Shown in pieces: positions 10,125 to 62,441 of a DNA stretch of 64,000 nucleotides. The notes beneath the pieces are model-generated. The model did no database searches and was not told the origin of the DNA. It saw only the letters and a program-made list of their open reading frames with translations. Source of the DNA: Terriglobia bacterium (GTDB lineage: Bacteria > Acidobacteriota > Terriglobia > 20CM-2-55-15); contig CAXWPJ010000012.1 of assembly GCA_963664115.2 (NCBI GenBank), positions 512,001 through 576,000 on the forward strand, read 5' to 3'. The first letter of the stretch is position 1. Every line of letters begins with the position of its first letter. The position numbers were made by a program, and so were the translations under genes.

Positions 10125-11509
10125 GAGTTATTGTCAAAAGTGGTGTTTAGGAGATTGATTCAAGCGGCGGCCTGATCGACTTGTGTCGCTTCGACACCAT
10201 CGTTGAATTTCACTCCGATGATTACCTTGCTCAGATCATCGAATCCTCGTAATCGTCGCCAATTGTTCTCAGCGCACTGGCCCAGTTTGAACATCATGTG
10301 CAGCATGCCATCCCGTGTCAGGCAACCTCTGGATCGCTTCGTTCGGTGTCGAATGGTGGCAAAGGTCGACTCAATGGGATTCGTCGTTCTGATGCTCTGC
10401 CAGTGCTTGGCCGGAAAGTCGTAAAAGGCCAGCAGTTCCTCTCTGTCTTTCTGCAGGCAGAGTGTGGCTTTCGGATACTTCGGTTCATAGGTTTCAATGA
10501 ACAAGTCGAATGCCTTCTCGGCGTCTGCCTTCGTCTCGGCCTGCCAGATCGAGTGCAGGGCCTGTTTCGCCTTCGCCTGGACCGACTTGGGCAGGCAGTT
10601 GAGGACGTTCATGACTTTGTGCATCCAGCAACGTTGTTGACGTGTCTCGGGATAGATTTCCTCCAGTGCGGCCCAGAACCCCATCGCACCGTCACCGATG
10701 GCCAACTTCGGAACATTCATCCCACGGGACTTCAGCTTCAACAAGACCTCGCGCCAACTCTGTGTCGATTCCCGTACACCGTCTTCGATCGCCAGGAAAC
10801 GCTTCTCTCCGCGTTCATTCACGCCGATCACGACCAATGCACACAACTTGGTTTGTTCCGCCCGAAGTCCGCTGTAGATGCCGTCGGCCCAGACATAGAC
10901 CCAGCGATCTGCATCCAAACGCTCCTCGCATCCGAGGCGGTACTGTTCGCCCCAAACCTGTTTCAACCGCGATACCGTGCTCGCCGACAGACCCTGCGCC
11001 TGGGGACCGACAAGAACTTTTAGGGCCTCACCCATCTCGCCGCTGGAAACGCCTTTCAAATACAACCACGGCACCGCTGCTTCCAGCGACTTCGTCTTCC
11101 GAATGTACGGTGGTACCAGGGCCGATCGGAACGTCACAGCTTCGCCCGTCTTGGCACGGACCTTCGGGATTTGGACTGTTACCGGACCCAATCCCGTCTG
11201 CAGTTCGCGTTCCGGCAGATAACCGTTGCGTACCACCCCGGCGTTTCCTGTCTCAGTTCGCCGGCCACCGTGCTGGGATAGCAGCTCTGCCAATTCGGCT
11301 TCCACTGCGCGTTGGATCAGTTGCTGTGCCCCAACTCGTAGTAGTTCTGTTACTGGATCCTCAATCGTTTCTCGACCTTCCGGTCCATTCACGTTACTCT
11401 TGCTCACAGTGGCGTATCTCCTATGGTTGCTTTGAAGTTTTGTCACAACAAATCAACCAGATACGCCGCTCTTATTCAATCCCTCAAACACCAGATTCGG
11501 TTATAACTC
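10125..11509 (-). mobile_element. IS256-family IS (transposase 10160-11446)
   Basis: Terminal IRs GAGTTAT.../...ATAACTC; YVWADG, IGDGAMG, QRCWMH and TTNPIES motifs; no TSD. Confidence 0.95.
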
Positions 11510-41098: not shown

Positions 41099-41531
41099 AG
41101 GGGAATTAGGGAACCGGCACACGTTCCTTCAGTTCGGTGGCGCCGGCGATGGCCGTTTGGCGTGCCCTCATACGAAAACAACAACCATAACGGAGGCTCC
41201 GTCCCTTGAGACTCCGGCCACCCTCTATCCGTTCGGCCTCTGAATTTCCTCGTGCGGAATTCTTTCGAGCAATTTTTTCAACTTCAGTAAAGGGATCATG
41301 GCGAAGTTGAAAAGCCTCTACATTCGGTTGATGGCCTGCGAAAGAAAGTGCTTCCCGACCCGAAAAGACCCCCCCAAAAAAAACTGGACGAATTACAGAT
41401 ATTAGGGATATTGTTTCAATCACAAATAACAGAATCTTTCCAATGTACAAATTTCTGAACGTATTCCGGCCGGAATTACGTCCTGTTTGGTTCATAGGAG
41501 CGTCGACAAACGCGAGTCTAAGGAGGACCCT

Positions 41532-43164
<1,633 letters not shown>

Positions 43165-43169
<5 letters not shown>

Positions 43170-46099: not shown

Positions 46100-47041
46100 T
46101 CACGACTCTATCGCGAAGTCCATCCCCAATAAGCTCTCGCGCAGGAGAGCAGTGTCGCCAATATCATCGCCATATAGGACACCAATGACGGCGGCGTGGA
46201 GAGCACGAAATCGCGCCATGATTTGGATCGGCTTTTCGACCGCTCCATAGCTATCCCAAAATACTTCGCGACCCTCGGGTGGCAGAAAACCGAACGCAAT
46301 AGCCAAATCCATACTGGGGCTTCCTAGGTGGATGTCGCCCCAGTCAATCACGCCGCTTGGCAGTCCAAAGTTGTCCACAAGGATATGCTCCGCTGAAAAA
46401 TCGCCGTGTGACAATGTGTTCAACCGCGGTTGAAAGTCCGATGACATCTGTTCAACGATCCGTTCCCAAGGTGAAACGTCAGCAACCAATCCCTTTCCTC
46501 GAATCGTCAGAAGACTTGAGAGCAACTGTGGAATACGTTTTCCCATGTCAGCTCGGCCAAATTTATCTCCCGGAATTTCCAGATCTCCCGGATCAATGGC
46601 ATGTAGAGTTGCTAAGAAATTCGCTAAGGGAGCAGCAAGTTCCTTCCTCTGCTCTCGCGTCAATCCAACACTCAGTGCCGTGGTGCCTGGAAGAAAGCGA
46701 TAGCCCGCAAACGGCCAATCATACTCTTGTGTTGGCTTACCAACCCATCTTGGTACTGGGATAGGGAAAGGCAACTGAGCTGCAATTCGAGGAAGGACGC
46801 GAGTTTCCGTCTGCAGCAGTTCCACCGCTATCTCTCGGCGAGGAAACCGGAAAACCCAAGTCCTGTTCACTACGTAGGCCGTATTGTCCCAACCCTCACC
46901 TAGAAGTTGGATATGCGCAGGTCGAAGCTCCGGGAATTGGCTTTCGATCAGACGAACGGCCGCATCTGGCATCACGATATGCTCAGGTAGCCAAGGTTTA
47001 CCGGTAGGCATTACTGAAGAGAGTACCAGTCTGGAGTTCAA
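46100..47041 (-). CDS. Aminoglycoside phosphotransferase-like kinase (start probably 47011 or 46972)
   Basis: GEGWDN, VFRFPR, HGDFSAEHIL and IDWGD motifs; single-gene interval. Confidence 0.9.
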   Translation of the reverse strand: MNSRLVLSSVMPTGKPWLPEHIVMPDAAVRLIESQFPELRPAHIQLLGEGWDNTAYVVNRTWVFRFPRREIAVELLQTETRVLPRIAAQLPFPIPVPRWVGKPTQEYDWPFAGYRFLPGTTALSVGLTREQRKELAAPLANFLATLHAIDPGDLEIPGDKFGRADMGKRIPQLLSSLLTIRGKGLVADVSPWERIVEQMSSDFQPRLNTLSHGDFSAEHILVDNFGLPSGVIDWGDIHLGSPSMDLAIAFGFLPPEGREVFWDSYGAVEKPIQIMARFRALHAAVIGVLYGDDIGDTALLRESLLGMDFAIES

Positions 47042-47074
47042 CGTCCGAGAAGATGATTTCTCGGGACTTGAGAA
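47035..47074 (+). repeat. 40-bp dif-like array site, intact
   Basis: AGTTCAACGTCCGAGAAGATGATTTCTCGGGACTTGAGAA. Confidence 0.95.
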
Positions 47075-47697: not shown

Positions 47698-47737
47698 TTC
47701 TCAAGGTCCGCGAAGATGATTTCTCGGAACTTGACCT
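47698..47737 (+). repeat. 40-bp dif-like array site, variant
   Basis: TTCTCAAGGTCCGCGAAGATGATTTCTCGGAACTTGACCT, then INIVLNWFEELKDRVPVP* remnant. Confidence 0.9.
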
Positions 47738-47814
47738 CGGAAATCAGGGTACGGGCACCCGATCCTTCAGTTCTTCAAACCAGTTGAGGACGATGTTGAT
47801 TTCGCCCGACTCAG

Positions 47815-51204: not shown

Positions 51205-51714
51205 TCAGCGAAACTCGGCCACGACGCCATCCCGAATAACTACAATAGTCCCGCCGAAGATCAGCTTTTCCGACTGCCTGCTGACAACTTGTGCGTCGGG
51301 TCTTCCGAAACGCTCAATCACGTCGGCCCGAGGGGAACCCACCAGAATCTGCCCAGTACCCGAGCTGTTGCCTCTAGAGGGCCGCGTCGCTATGGCTAGT
51401 CGGTCTGAACGCTCGACGATCCCGGTGCCGTAATACCCTGTACCGTAGCCGTCACCGTAGTACCTGCCAGGAAAGAAACCCCGATTCCCCAGTGTGACTA
51501 TGCCGATCACTTGGGTCGCTGTGCGGGGCTCAAATCCAGGTGCGACCTTCACGGCCCGTGGACCAACGAGAATCACTGTAGGACCGACGCCAACCGGATA
51601 GCCCAGAACACCCGGATAACCCAGGACCTCGGGATAGATAAGGTGCTGGGCGGCCAGGGCCGCAGGGAACACGATCAACGTTGCCAGAGCTGCAATGACT
51701 GCTTTACTCTTCAT
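51205..51714 (-). CDS. Secreted hypothetical protein
   Basis: Signal peptide; GGAGG RBS; 169 aa. Confidence 0.7.
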   Translation of the reverse strand: MKSKAVIAALATLIVFPAALAAQHLIYPEVLGYPGVLGYPVGVGPTVILVGPRAVKVAPGFEPRTATQVIGIVTLGNRGFFPGRYYGDGYGTGYYGTGIVERSDRLAIATRPSRGNSSGTGQILVGSPRADVIERFGRPDAQVVSRQSEKLIFGGTIVVIRDGVVAEFR

Positions 51715-51802: not shown

Positions 51803-51815
51803 ATGTCAACGTCCG
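51803..51815 (+). repeat. Array site, left part (split by group II intron)
   Basis: ATGTCAACGTCCG. Confidence 0.85.
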
Positions 51816-52490
51816 GTCGAGTAGACCCGGGGAATTTCACCCCGAGTCCCTCACAGAACCGTGCTTGAACCTCTCGATTCACACGGCTCTTGCCAGCCGT
51901 TCGCCGACCACCTCACGGTGGGGGGCCGACACCCGATGAATCCGGCTCCTCCCGCTTGCGCGGTTGGCCAGTTCCAAAGAGCGAGCTGGCTCATCCCCTT
52001 CGCTCCCCTCCCATTACAAGAGGTTCATCACTACTACAGGATGATCCGCCCCTGAACTCCGCATCCGTACTCTCGCCCTCGTGGTTCTGGCCACTTGTGG
52101 CTTCTCCGTTAGCATCGAAGTTCAGGTTCCCACGTTCCGCTCAACCGCCTCTTGGTAAGCTCAGGCCACCTCTCATGCCGGAGGCCACTCCGCCCGTAAA
52201 CAGGTTCCGTCGGAGCTCGTCCCGCAGTATCTTCTCCCTGCGGTTTTGGCCATCGTCTTTAAATTTTCGACACTTCAACAGTGGTTCCCTTTCGGTCCTC
52301 TTCTTACCAGTCACCTGACCCAGTCATCGCCGGGCCTTTTCCTTCTGCGCTCACGACCATGGCTTTTGACCACAGCCGCCAGAGGTGGTTTGAAACCGAC
52401 GCCTGTACGCCGGCTCCGAGGGGCCCTCCCTCATCAGTTGAGTAGTTACGCACTCGATGACCTTGCGGCCCCCGAGCACTCGTGGCACAC
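51816..52490 (-). ncRNA. ORF-less group II intron (675 nt)
   Basis: 5' GUGUG; domain V GAGCCGUGUGAAUCGAGAGGUUCAAGCACGGUUC; domain VI ending ...CUACUCGAC; removing it restores an array site. Confidence 0.92.
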
Positions 52491-52517
52491 AGAAGATGAT
52501 TTATCGGGACTTGACCT
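52491..52517 (+). repeat. Array site, right part (split by group II intron)
   Basis: AGAAGATGATTTATCGGGACTTGACCT. Confidence 0.9.
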
Positions 52518-52526
52518 TGAAAATCA

Positions 52527-54127
52527 GAGTTATAACCGAATCTGGTGTTTGAGGGATTGAATAAGAGCGGCGTATCTGGTTGATTTGTTGTGACAAAACT
52601 TCAAAGCAACCATAGGAGATACGCCACTGTGAGCAAGAGTAACGTGAATGGACCGGAAGGTCGAGAAACGATTGAGGATCCAGTAACAGAACTACTACGA
52701 GTTGGGGCACAGCAACTGATCCAACGCGCAGTGGAAGCCGAATTGGCAGAGCTGCTATCCCAGCACGGTGGCCGGCGAACTGAGACAGGAAACGCCGGGG
52801 TGGTACGCAACGGTTATCTGCCGGAACGCGAACTGCAGACGGGATTGGGTCCGGTAACAGTCCAAATCCCGAAGGTCCGTGCCAAGACGGGCGAAGCTGT
52901 GACGTTCCGATCGGCCCTGGTACCACCGTACATTCGGAAGACGAAGTCGCTGGAAGCAGCGGTGCCGTGGTTGTATTTGAAAGGCGTTTCCAGCGGCGAG
53001 ATGGGTGAGGCCCTAAAAGTTCTTGTCGGTCCCCAGGCGCAGGGTCTGTCGGCGAGCACGGTATCGCGGTTGAAACAGGTTTGGGGCGAACAGTACCGCC
53101 TCGGATGCGAGGAGCGTTTGGATGCAGATCGCTGGGTCTATGTCTGGGCCGACGGCATCTACAGCGGACTTCGGGCGGAACAAACCAAGTTGTGTGCATT
53201 GGTCGTGATCGGCGTGAATGAACGCGGAGAGAAGCGTTTCCTGGCGATCGAAGACGGTGTACGGGAATCGACACAGAGTTGGCGCGAGGTCTTGTTGAAG
53301 CTGAAGTCCCGTGGGATGAATGTTCCGAAGTTGGCCATCGGTGACGGTGCGATGGGGTTCTGGGCCGCACTGGAGGAAATCTATCCCGAGACACGTCAAC
53401 AACGTTGCTGGATGCACAAAGTCATGAACGTCCTCAACTGCCTGCCCAAGTCGGTCCAGGCGAAGGCGAAACAGGCCCTGCACTCGATCTGGCAGGCCGA
53501 GACGAAGGCAGACGCCGAGAAGGCATTCGACTTGTTCATTGAAACCTATGAACCGAAGTATCCGAAAGCCACACTCTGCCTGCAGAAAGACAGAGAGGAA
53601 CTGCTGGCCTTTTACGACTTTCCGGCCAAGCACTGGCAGAGCATCAGAACGACGAATCCCATTGAGTCGACCTTTGCCACCATTCGACACCGAACGAAGC
53701 GATCCAGAGGTTGCCTGACACGGGATGGCATGCTGCACATGATGTTCAAACTGGGCCAGTGCGCTGAGAACAATTGGCGACGATTACGAGGATTCGATGA
53801 TCTGAGCAGAGAGTAACTGCTGGCCTTTTACGACTTTCCGGCCAAGCACTGGCAGAGCATCAGAACGACGAATCCCATTGAGTCGACCTTTGCCACCATT
53901 CGACACCGAACGAAGCGATCCAGAGGTTGCCTGACACGGGATGGCATGCTGCACATGATGTTCAAACTGGGCCAGTGCGCTGAGAACAATTGGCGACGAT
54001 TACGAGGATTCGATGATCTGAGCAAGGTAATCATCGGAGTGAAATTCAACGATGGTGTCGAAGCGACACAAGTCGATCAGGCCGCCGCTTGAATCAATCT
54101 CCTAAACACCACTTTTGACAATAACTC
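52527..54127 (+). mobile_element. IS256-family IS, copy 2, with internal 216-bp tandem duplication
   Basis: Same element as 10125-11509; 9-bp TSD TGAAAATCA at 52518-52526 and 54128-54136. Confidence 0.95.
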
Positions 54128-56083: not shown

Positions 56084-57265
56084 TCAGGAAGAATCGAATC
56101 CCCTCCTTTCAAGTGGCCACCGGATCTGGGCCGCGGTGAGCCGCTCCCCGATCGTCATGGCCGCGCCGCAGTTGGGACAGCGCCAGGAGTTGGGGCGTGC
56201 ATCGGTCGATCGTTCAGATGTCTGAGTCGCAGTAGCACCTCCTAACCAATGCCGGCACAAAGGCAGCAGTGAACCACGATGGCGGGCTGAGAGAAAACCA
56301 AAGAACCGGATGCGGACGAAGCGGCGCGGCAAGGTGTGGGTGAGAAAGCGGATGAGAAACTGTTCAGCCGGAAGCGTCATGTTGCGGGGTGCGTGCTTGT
56401 GCCGGGAGTCTTTCCAGCGAAACGTAACCTGACCGTCCTGGAGATCGACGAGGCGGTGGTTGGAGATGGCGACCCGATGTGTGTAACGGGCCAGATAGTG
56501 GAGTACGTGTTTGGGCCCGCCGAATGGACGCTTGGAGTAGACGACCCAGTCGATGTGATGGAGCGGGCCGATAAAGGCCGCGAATCGTTTCGGGTCGTTT
56601 AATGGGGCCAGATCGCCATAGAAACGTAGCTCTCCCCGCTTGAACGATCGCCGAAGCCGGTCCAGAAACTTACCCCGAAACACTTCACTGAGCACCTTCA
56701 CTGGAAGGAAGAACCGATGGCGGGCCCGAATCCATCGGGTGTGGTCGCCCGACAGGCCACCGGCAGGAACGACACAATGGATGTGGGGATGATGACCCAG
56801 CGTCTGACTCCAGGTATGGAGCACGCTGAGCACGCCAATCTGGGCGCCCAGATGTTTCCCGTTGGCGGCCACTTCCTGCAACGTGGCCGCGCTGGCCCCA
56901 AACAGCAGGGCATAGATCACACGTTTGTTCTGATAAGCCAACCGCGCCAGGGGTTGGGGCAGGGTGAAAACGACATGCACGTAGCGAGTCGGCAGTAACT
57001 CCCCGGTGCGATCCGTCACCCACTGGTCACGGGCACGGGTCTGACACTTCGGGCAATGCCGATTGCGGCACGAGTTGTAGGAGAGGGCGCGATAGTCGCA
57101 GTTCGATTCCGAGCATCGGTCCCGGTGGCCTCCCAGCGCCGCGGTGCGACACTGCTGAATAGAGTTGAGGACGCGCAACTGACCGCCATCGAGCCGGCGA
57201 TGCGCCACCAGGTCGGAACCATGACGACGGATGATGTCGGCCACCTCAAGGGTGGGCCGGGTCAC
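56084..57265 (-). CDS. IS91-family (Y2/HUH) transposase with zinc-binding domain
   Basis: YNSCRNRHCPKC, HVVFTLP, HPHIH and YLARYTHR motifs. Confidence 0.95.
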   Translation of the reverse strand: MTRPTLEVADIIRRHGSDLVAHRRLDGGQLRVLNSIQQCRTAALGGHRDRCSESNCDYRALSYNSCRNRHCPKCQTRARDQWVTDRTGELLPTRYVHVVFTLPQPLARLAYQNKRVIYALLFGASAATLQEVAANGKHLGAQIGVLSVLHTWSQTLGHHPHIHCVVPAGGLSGDHTRWIRARHRFFLPVKVLSEVFRGKFLDRLRRSFKRGELRFYGDLAPLNDPKRFAAFIGPLHHIDWVVYSKRPFGGPKHVLHYLARYTHRVAISNHRLVDLQDGQVTFRWKDSRHKHAPRNMTLPAEQFLIRFLTHTLPRRFVRIRFFGFLSARHRGSLLPLCRHWLGGATATQTSERSTDARPNSWRCPNCGAAMTIGERLTAAQIRWPLERRGFDSS

Positions 57266-58146
57266 CGCAACCCGACTTCGCTTGAATCCAATAGCGGGAT
57301 CTGATCCAGCGGATTCTTTATGGCCTGTAAGTGCCGGTTCGACAGATGCAGATACAGCGTGGTGTGCTTCAGGTCAGCGTGGCCCAACAGGAGTTGAATC
57401 GTGTAGAGATCGGTCCCGTCTTCCAACAGGTGCGTTGCGTAGCTGTGTCGCAGGCTGTGAGGTGAGATCCGCTTGCGGAGAATCGCGCGCTCACGCGCTT
57501 CCCGGCAAGCGCGCCACACCATCTTCGTGGAGATCGGTGCATCGACCCGACGGCGCCGTTTCATGCCCGGAAACAGGTAGGTCTTCGGCTTCATCCAGCG
57601 CGCGTACTGGCGCAATGTCTCCAGTAGTCGTGGACTCAGCGGCACGGCCCGGTCCCGTCCGCGTTTCCCACCCCGGATCTGAATCACCATCCGTGCGCTG
57701 TCGATGTCCTCTATTTTGAGGCACACCAGTTCACCGCGACGCATCCCGGTGCCGTAGAGCGTCATCAGCATCGCCCGCTGCATCAACGTGCGACACCCAT
57801 CGATCAATCGGGCCACTTCCCCACGAGAGAGCACGACCGGCAATCGCCGATCCTGTTTCGGCATCGGTGTGTGTTCGAGCAGATAGGTCCGATTCAGTGT
57901 CTTAACGAAGAAGAAGCGTAATGCCGAGACGTGTTGCGCCACTGTCCGGGCCGACAACCCCCGATCTCGAAACAGGTGCACCTGGTACTGCCGGATCTCG
58001 TCGGCTCCCAATCGGTCCGGCGCTCGGCGGAAATGTCGGGCAAAGTTCCCCAGGATTCTCAGGTAGGTCTGTACCGTTCTCGGAGCGTAATTACGTCGCT
58101 GGAGCTCGTCCAGCATCAACCTGCGGTTGGGCGTCATTCGGATCAT
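57262..58146 (-). CDS. Tyrosine recombinase with N-terminal SAM-like domain, coupled to the IS91 transposase
   Basis: YGTGMR, HSLRHSYATH and LLGH...TTLY catalytic motifs; 4-bp overlap with the transposase. Confidence 0.95.
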   Translation of the reverse strand: MIRMTPNRRLMLDELQRRNYAPRTVQTYLRILGNFARHFRRAPDRLGADEIRQYQVHLFRDRGLSARTVAQHVSALRFFFVKTLNRTYLLEHTPMPKQDRRLPVVLSRGEVARLIDGCRTLMQRAMLMTLYGTGMRRGELVCLKIEDIDSARMVIQIRGGKRGRDRAVPLSPRLLETLRQYARWMKPKTYLFPGMKRRRRVDAPISTKMVWRACREARERAILRKRISPHSLRHSYATHLLEDGTDLYTIQLLLGHADLKHTTLYLHLSNRHLQAIKNPLDQIPLLDSSEVGLR

Positions 58147-58256
58147 AGAGATATCCCTCCTGTATCTCTACAACCCGATACCCTCCCTCAGTCAGGCCCG
58201 GTCCTTCACCACGCACGCAAAGCGTCCGCCGCGCCAGCGGCTTAGTTCAAACGACA

Positions 58257-58273
58257 TTGTCGGACGTTGAGAA
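58257..58273 (-). repeat. Inverted left arm of the array site
   Basis: Reverse complement TTCTCAACGTCCGACAA. Confidence 0.85.
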
Positions 58274-58292
58274 AAGGCCTGGGAAATGGGGG

Positions 58293-58332
58293 TTCTCAAG
58301 GTCCGAGAAGATGATTTATCAGGACTTGAACT
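58293..58332 (+). repeat. 40-bp dif-like array site, intact
   Basis: TTCTCAAGGTCCGAGAAGATGATTTATCAGGACTTGAACT, then INIVLKWFEELKERVPMP* remnant. Confidence 0.95.
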
Positions 58333-58480
58333 CGAAAATCACGGCATCGGCACCCGCTCCTTCAGTTCTTCAAACCACTTCAGGACGATGTTGATCCGGG
58401 ACCGCCTCGCCCCACCGATGTCAGCTCTGCCAGCTGGAACAATCGTGATGAATTCTTCGCCGGCTGGGTGATGCCCACTT

Positions 58481-62241: not shown

Positions 62242-62441
62242 CTTGTGTCTCCTGGCCCCTAAAGACCGCAACTCGACTCGTCCACCATCACCAACCACGA
62301 AAAAGATCTCGTAACGGCCTAATTTGGTGCCGGGTTCCATGTTTAAAGTGTGACGCTAAGTGGAACAGCGAAATTCTGGTAAGTCTATCTACATGGGAGG
62401 GATATTGGCAAGGAAAGGGTCAACTCCCGAAACTTGGCAAA

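Follow-up and report, generated by a model that had tools for sequence, protein, structure and literature searches.

Bacterial group II introns without a reading frame have been described as rare (PMC4424553), and the papers cited here offer several systems with which the one described below can be compared. The TeI3 introns of Thermosynechococcus elongatus (PMC2882425) are ORF-less group IIB elements which form families with diverged exon-binding sites (EBS) at repeated targets, namely insertion sequences (IS) and introns, and are mobilised in trans by the intron-encoded proteins (IEPs) of driver introns. The class D/IIB3 introns RmInt1, RmInt2 and Sr.md.I1 (PMC4615759) have an EBS1/2/3 layout with a linker of 1 or 2 nt and a C at the IBS3 position, and target IS. 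Group IIC-attC introns (PMC3001079, PMC4424553) insert at a fixed base of integron attC sites, which punctuate gene arrays and are also visited by IS110-family elements; they lie antisense in attC (PMC3001079), and group IIC introns have a short EBS1 and no EBS2 (PMC3753933). UHB.I2 (PMC7923331), a IIB1/CL1 intron with an ORF, lies in sense orientation in a cassette array, after an attC which it does not split. Where these papers describe group II introns in cassette arrays, they link them to the attC sites of integrons. The pdif/dif sites with their IS1202-family hunters (PMC10132070) have an 11-6-11 geometry, occur as paired inverted sites and have mobile elements targeted to them. A literature search, in which subscription journals were mostly absent, gave no paper on the repeat described here or on group II introns in dif-like sites.

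In the 64,000-nt stretch of DNA analysed here (the window), an ORF-less intron splits one copy of a dispersed 34-bp palindromic repeat. By analogy with the systems above, it would combine the class D homing of the RmInt type with the driver-dependent life of TeI3; it is not of the IIC-attC type. It is a IIB intron without ORF, as TeI3, and may likewise be mobilised in trans; unlike the TeI introns, which are CL/IIB1, it is of class D, and its target is a recombination-like site. With the RmInt-type introns it shares the RT class (by a motif in full-length relatives), the layout of EBS1 and EBS2, the C at IBS3 and relatives which target IS, differing from them in the missing ORF and in a target which is not IS coding sequence. 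The parallel to attC introns drawn in the initial annotation fails mechanistically, as the intron is class D/IIB and finds its target by base pairing through both EBS1 and EBS2, is sense to most cargo genes and occupies a site without attC features; the parallel is ecological only and lies in the fixed base of sites punctuating gene arrays and in the IS110-family elements found there as well. UHB.I2 is similar as a sense IIB intron in a cassette array, and different as to its class, its ORF and its unsplit site.

Structure of the intron and recognition of its exons

The initial annotation had placed a 675-nt intron on the minus strand at 51816-52490, which is borne out by the boundaries, three copies, Rfam and the fold. 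The intron runs from 52490 (GUGUG) to 51816 (AC), and the proposed Infernal/Rfam check led to two group II models above their curated cut-offs (group-II-D1D4-2, 106.4 bits, 52313-52432; Intron_gpII, 58.7 bits, 51816-51891), the latter, together with the consensus fold, confirming the domains V and VI noticed before. The intron RNA folds with z = -4.5 relative to 20 shuffles. Domains I-VI were resolved by a consensus fold of five ORF-less members, including L050 and L058, which are identical to each other over DI-DIII, and 28 of the 206 pairs of this fold showed double-sided changes. That no RT reading frame is present was also correct, with a domain IV of about 100 nt and no match at this locus in a genome-wide RT search. 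GUGYG...AY ends, domains I-VI, the domain V triad and a bulged A are all found, and excision in silico restores a repeat copy with one mismatch to window positions 47038-47071. Judged from its sequence, this group IIB intron is complete, lacks an ORF and descends from class D, not from class C.

51816-52490, minus: ORF-less group IIB (class D-derived) intron, 675 nt (Rfam, three copies, consensus fold)
52491-52514, minus: 5' exon, the 24-nt part of the split repeat, with IBS1 at 52491-52497 and IBS2 at 52499-52503
52130-52485, minus: domain I, with the Rfam D1-D4-2 motif inside at 52313-52432 (Rfam, consensus fold)
52260-52264, minus: EBS2, 5/5 pairs with exon positions -9 to -13 (complementarity, variation alongside the exon in homologues)
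52222-52243, minus: EBS1 hairpin, EBS1 proper at 52229-52235 (single and consensus folds, exon pairing)
52051-52126, minus: domain II (consensus fold)
51992-52048, minus: domain III (consensus fold)
51892-51990, minus: domain IV, without ORF, DIVa-like hairpin at 51946-51967 (comparison with L033 and L053)
51856-51889, minus: domain V, 34 nt, AGC triad (Rfam, fold)
51817-51853, minus: domain VI, bulged A 51822 as predicted branch point (consensus fold)
51806-51815, minus: 3' exon, the 10-nt part of the split repeat, first base C (IBS3 position)

A DIVa-like hairpin precedes the start codon in the RT-bearing relatives L033 and L053; it is kept in the window intron at 51946-51967 and likely represents the maturase-binding site. 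In the contigs of 8 of the 22 listed sequencing runs no intron-skipping joint was detected, but none of the listed contigs spans a junction by 31 nt on both sides, and the result speaks neither for nor against a spliced or empty allele. Some of the runs containing the window stretch are labelled sponge metagenome.

The hairpin 52222-52243, previously proposed as EBS1, was formed in the single-sequence fold and in the five-sequence consensus, and its loop (52229-52235) pairs with exon positions -1 to -7 at 7/7 positions. For 12 homologues with an intact hairpin and a 5' exon (one of the three copies from the source genome, L019, L043, L017, L033 and seven soil contigs), the loop pairs with the respective own exon at 6-7 of 7 positions in every case, G-U allowed, whereas the window EBS1 reaches only 3-4/7 with the exons of five other groups. 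While the stem does not vary, few parts of domain I are as variable as the loop. Because the loop covaries with its own exons across the 12 homologues, we assign it, by sequence comparison, as EBS1. EBS2 was located about 25 nt upstream, just after a conserved motif; it pairs with its own exon at 5/5 positions in the window intron, at 4-5/5 in 8 of the 12 homologues and at 2-3/5 in the remaining 4. Of the domain I interactions that were to be checked by folding, EBS2 was thus found, while EBS3 was not located. Wherever the 3' exon of a close relative is visible, its first base (IBS3) is C, and a search for the delta-delta' pairing by covariation gave no covarying delta' column.

Copies in the source genome and a candidate helper

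Searching the source genome (G000) with blastn led to three full copies with 98.5-100% identity, at C12:564490 (the window), C12:20172 and C12:17035. All three interrupt the repeat at the identical base, which on the bottom strand lies 4 nt inside the second arm; immediately outside the 34 bp the flanks of the copies are different at either end, the split sites carry different polymorphic bases, and small indels distinguish the introns. A fourth relative (C10:406544, 89%) differs in its EBS1 and in its target, which lies in a rearranged locus at a distance of 72 nt from a repeat copy, and a 5'-truncated relative is found at C5:325473. IBS1 and IBS3 are perfect at 65 of the 122 intact canonical sites, and IBS2 as well at 13. 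With only three copies for so many perfect sites, homing would be rare, recent or stopped; the window intron was probably mobile recently. Two copies fit insertion on the lagging strand and one lies in ambiguous skew, which is uninformative as a bias since 78 of the 122 sites offer that strand regardless.

The search for siblings and an RT-encoding parent, also suggested earlier, thus yielded two more near-identical copies in the repeat, but no RT parent with the same EBS1, neither in the source genome nor in 5 further data sets or 35 family genomes; the only match to the window EBS1 search in those 5 data sets was an intact repeat site. RT-bearing relatives are L033 (88% ribozyme identity over DI-DIII, frameshifted ORF) and L053 (84%, 418-aa ORF), whose RTs end with the class D motif LX3AX3PXLF[V/A]HW, as defined in PMC4615759, and have no endonuclease domain; the class of the ORF-less window intron is read from these. 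The expected maturase in trans has a candidate in the sole class D-type RT of the source genome, an intact 420-aa protein with RVT_1 and GIIM domains (C4:17048-18309), 60% identical to the RT of L053 and 59.7% to ltrA of Sinorhizobium meliloti. Its intron carries another intron nested in domain VI and its ribozyme shares only 72% identity with the window intron over DI-DIII, and thus no close RT parent is present in this genome. We infer that the C4 RT is the best candidate for a helper in trans. Cross-complementation among class D introns is reported in PMC4615759 for closer pairs (72-87% IEP identity), and driver IEPs which mobilise ORF-less families with diverged EBS provide a precedent (PMC2882425).

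The 34-bp repeat

The repeat has an 11-6-11, dif-like geometry and gave 161 matches genome-wide at up to 8 mismatches, against 0 in one shuffled genome. The insertion had been described as lying in an array site; the intron indeed splits the repeat, which is not one local array but dispersed over these genome-wide matches.

47038-47071, plus: intact reference copy of the 34-bp repeat
2043, 2585, 4500, 5215, 32179, 34535, 36716, 41062, 47701, 48449, 58296, 62445 and 62948, plus: starts of the other copies in the window
47737-47805, 58332-58400 and 62305-62357: kinase remnants in the window
51205-51714, minus: downstream cargo ORF, 169 aa, no Pfam match, on the intron's strand

An arm-based search led to 122 canonical-core sites and 27 other rows (16 with variant core, 6 mirror duplicates). 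With a stricter pattern 121 sites were counted in the source genome, 80 in G002, 36 in G003, 8 in G001 and none in G004; four genomes from a different genus have 1-3 each, so that 8 of 61 genomes contain the site; viral contigs gave no exact match to the repeat pattern. Neighbouring repeats less than 15 kb apart are on the same strand in 84 cases and on opposite strands in 3, with a median spacing of 2.3 kb; in four cases a canonical and a variant site form a back-to-back pair with 24-25 nt between them. C-terminal tails of a Ser/Thr-kinase gene (about 900 aa) adjoin 67 of the 122 canonical sites, and a kinase start follows 12 of the 27 other rows. By fuzzy counts the tails number about 121 and the heads 59, against no more than 3 full copies found, tails abutting canonical and heads following variant sites, as if cargo had replaced the kinase body. 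The strand of the intron carries 46 of 63 single-copy cargo ORFs. Left flanks shared between sites are joined to unrelated right flanks in 13 of 19 cases, the pattern expected of site-specific exchange, and the repeat is probably a crossover site of the tyrosine-recombinase type. It matches no described site in the literature and database searches made.

One repeat arm is identical at 8/11 positions to the XerC-side arm of the dif-like site at C2:108141 (L104), the single such site of the source genome. This is in line with pdif/dif, as are the 11-6-11 geometry, the paired inverted sites and the targeting by mobile elements; the other arm, however, has only 5-6/11 in common with the XerD-side arm, the sites are mostly direct and not alternating, and the parasite here is an intron inserting inside the arm (PMC10132070). 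Comparison of homologous loci and of G002 did not reveal the cognate recombinase. A 316-aa tyrosine recombinase (C5:52189-53139, L059) is flanked by two variant sites which face outward, and a kinase start follows each of them; it is not supported as the site enzyme, since 0 of 29 homologous loci (one from the unpublished G119) have such sites and no match at E<=1e-40 was found in G002 despite its 80 sites. Within the window, a unit of a tyrosine recombinase and a Y2/IS91-type transposase (56084-58146) lies beside a back-to-back site pair (58248-58329), and this transposase has 9 matches in the genome, some adjoining sites.

Relatives and their targets

The ORF-less relative L019 from G002 is 83% identical and has re-coded EBS1 and EBS2, which pair at 7/7 and 5/5 positions with a variant-core repeat. 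The insertion point of L019 in this repeat mirrors that of the window intron on the opposite strand, once more 4 nt inside the second arm, and a partner site lies 48 nt upstream. A metagenome scan led to 9 loci, seven of which (soil contigs) contain the 5' exon; insertion is 14 nt after a CG in all seven, and in four of them a partner site of like orientation lies 46-49 nt upstream. The paired sites of G002 and of the soil relatives share a spacer of 22-25 nt, and the arms of the partner site of L051 are close to the repeat of the source genome. From geometry and arm likeness the soil sites, weak palindromes by folding, appear homologous to the repeat.

Among 18 close relatives with a readable 5' exon (about 83-89% identity), 9 are in the site family, including the doubtful L043, and 9 elsewhere, namely at IS6 sequences, at the ends of other introns and in unique DNA. 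L022, L029 and L041 lie inside IS6-family transposase sequence (DDE_Tnp_IS240 for L022), and L017 has an EBS1 matching this target, yet sits at unique DNA. L033 and L044 are in the terminal repeat of a miniature element, presumably IS6-like, whose end also borders an IS6-like ORF in L065, and L021, L034 and L035 follow the 3' ends of other introns. The claim of an intron lineage specialised on the repeat thus stands for the three near-copies (3/3), their sister in G002 and the seven soil relatives, and fails for the lineage as a whole: because half of the close relatives sit at other targets, specialisation would be at branch level only. The sequences suggest that this site family was adopted by one branch or by two, while the wider intron family may switch targets by EBS change among repeated mobile-DNA sequences.

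In a tree with EBS columns masked and near-copies omitted (L032, L038, L057, L058 and earlier L024, L034), the 10 site-labelled rows require 2 changes and form two groups, though a single clade is not rejected by the AU test (p-AU 0.0935), and the G000/G002 group has a support of only 83/92; target labels were set by us, for L050 and L052 from the 3' exon only. The EBS1 hairpin pattern occurs 9 times in 5 of 35 family genomes, the window variant of EBS1 in the source genome alone. When 401 genomes of the phylum were sampled, with no more than 2 candidates scored in each, all relatives found were distant ones, located in 2 other genomes. The more distant class D relatives L040, L097 and L099 are inserted in codons of the YADD-motif region of other RT genes.

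Other elements in or near the repeat

An unrelated, RT-bearing intron of 2003 nt (C5:39651-37649 in the source genome; L060, L107) splits the same repeat on the same strand as the window intron, 14 nt earlier, and two ORF-less relatives of 864 and 861 nt (L108, L111) are found at that same base in G002. Six relatives in G004, where the repeat is absent, and one in G003 are inserted at other targets; its EBS1 was not located by a simple complement search. Furthermore, half-sites followed by identical foreign DNA occur 7, 5 and 4 times in the source genome (L101, L102, L103). One example per group was analysed, giving IS110-family transposases for the groups of 7 and 5 and an HTH_38/rve transposase, which we take to be IS30, for the group of 4; the insertion points of the two IS110-family elements and of the third IS lie within the 6-bp core or next to it. 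One repeat is hence hit by a class D intron, by an intron lineage unrelated to it and by three types of IS; these parasites single the repeat out as a target that is functional and tolerated, and locate its centre with single-base precision.

Interpretation

The preferred reading, to which we give a probability of about 75%, is that of a class D-derived ORF-less IIB intron whose EBS1 and EBS2 fit the repeat centre and which likely retrohomes, via an RT acting in trans, into an intergenic safe haven. After splicing, the intron RNA would pair through EBS1 and EBS2 with IBS1 and IBS2, an RT borrowed in trans, at best C4:17048-18309, would drive retrohoming, and the abundant intergenic repeat would serve as the haven. 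It draws on the anatomy, the complementarity and covariation of the EBS, the same base with different flanks in 3/3 copies, the re-coding in L019 and the other elements at the repeat. The main competing view of the EBS match is that a drifted class D EBS happened to fit the commonest repeat without any adaptation at lineage level. This would agree with the half of the close relatives at IS6 sequences or intron ends, with the two groups of site-targeting rows and with a target of more than 120 copies on which several IS also land; we consider it rather unlikely, as the relatives from G002 and soil, with other EBS and core letters, are inserted at an unchanged geometric position, 4 nt inside the second arm, and in paired sites whose spacer is again 22-25 nt, and a single clade of site-targeting rows is not rejected (p-AU 0.09). 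Immobile relics of a single insertion, spread by recombination or gene conversion between repeats or produced by assembly error, might be suspected from the missing close RT parent, from the 3 kb between two of the three copies (C12:16365, 19488) and from duplicated blocks in the genome. Such an origin is improbable in view of outer flanks which differ on both sides, split sites with different polymorphic bases, small indels between copies and a structure kept by double-sided changes in the five ORF-less members.

An attC-like site, that is a single-stranded hairpin for an integron-type integrase which the intron recognises as IIC-attC introns do, seems scarcely probable to us. From the arms a stem can be drawn in which two bases, one of them the most variable arm position (4), are unpaired; the sites form direct arrays, and an integron-integrase-like gene is present at C9:714590-715759. 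This gene, however, is 196 kb from the nearest repeat, the DNA folds weakly (-3.4 to -6.4 kcal/mol, shuffle p 0.03-0.19) and positions 11/22 of the supposed stem vary without compensation, by which the hairpin was rejected; moreover, the window intron has EBS2, is of class D and is sense to 46/63 cargo ORFs, whereas IIC-attC introns are antisense (PMC3001079). The consensus of the repeat does not match the attC boxes. These have the form RYYYAAC/GTTRRRY. On this comparison the repeat is not an attC site. As for the putatively retrohoming class D intron, its mechanism would be ordinary, and it is of interest chiefly for the site system it indicates. More tentatively, and at less than even odds, the repeat may be the crossover site of an undescribed Acidobacteriota-wide cassette system with which the intron co-evolved by EBS re-coding at fixed geometry. 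If true, paired 11-6-11 sites from a Ser/Thr-kinase unit, run by Xer or another recombinase, would form an integron-like ecosystem of different parts, with a second intron lineage and several IS. The natural EBS/target pairs are a ready test of retargeting with the geometry kept.

Further observations on neighbouring elements

An IS256-family element adjoins the intron-split repeat; it is inserted in a kinase-tail remnant, 12 nt outside the repeat.

52527-54127, plus: IS256-family element (Transposase_mut) with 9-bp target duplication

A loose contig end at 52527 was observed in run contigs. The 3' end of the transposase contains a perfect 216-bp tandem duplication (53591-54022), either real or an assembly artefact, and an intact 428-aa copy is found at window positions 10160-11446. 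An RT intron starting with TTGCG inserts just after domain V of other introns, giving twintrons (C4:18341, C5:325802, C11:23057 and C10:407133 in the source genome; also L017); its targets include a relative of the window intron, and the three repeat-borne copies are not yet struck. At 41487-43169 the window encodes a secreted protein with collagen and Asn/Thr repeats, the 3' end of which is cut by an IS3-like element.
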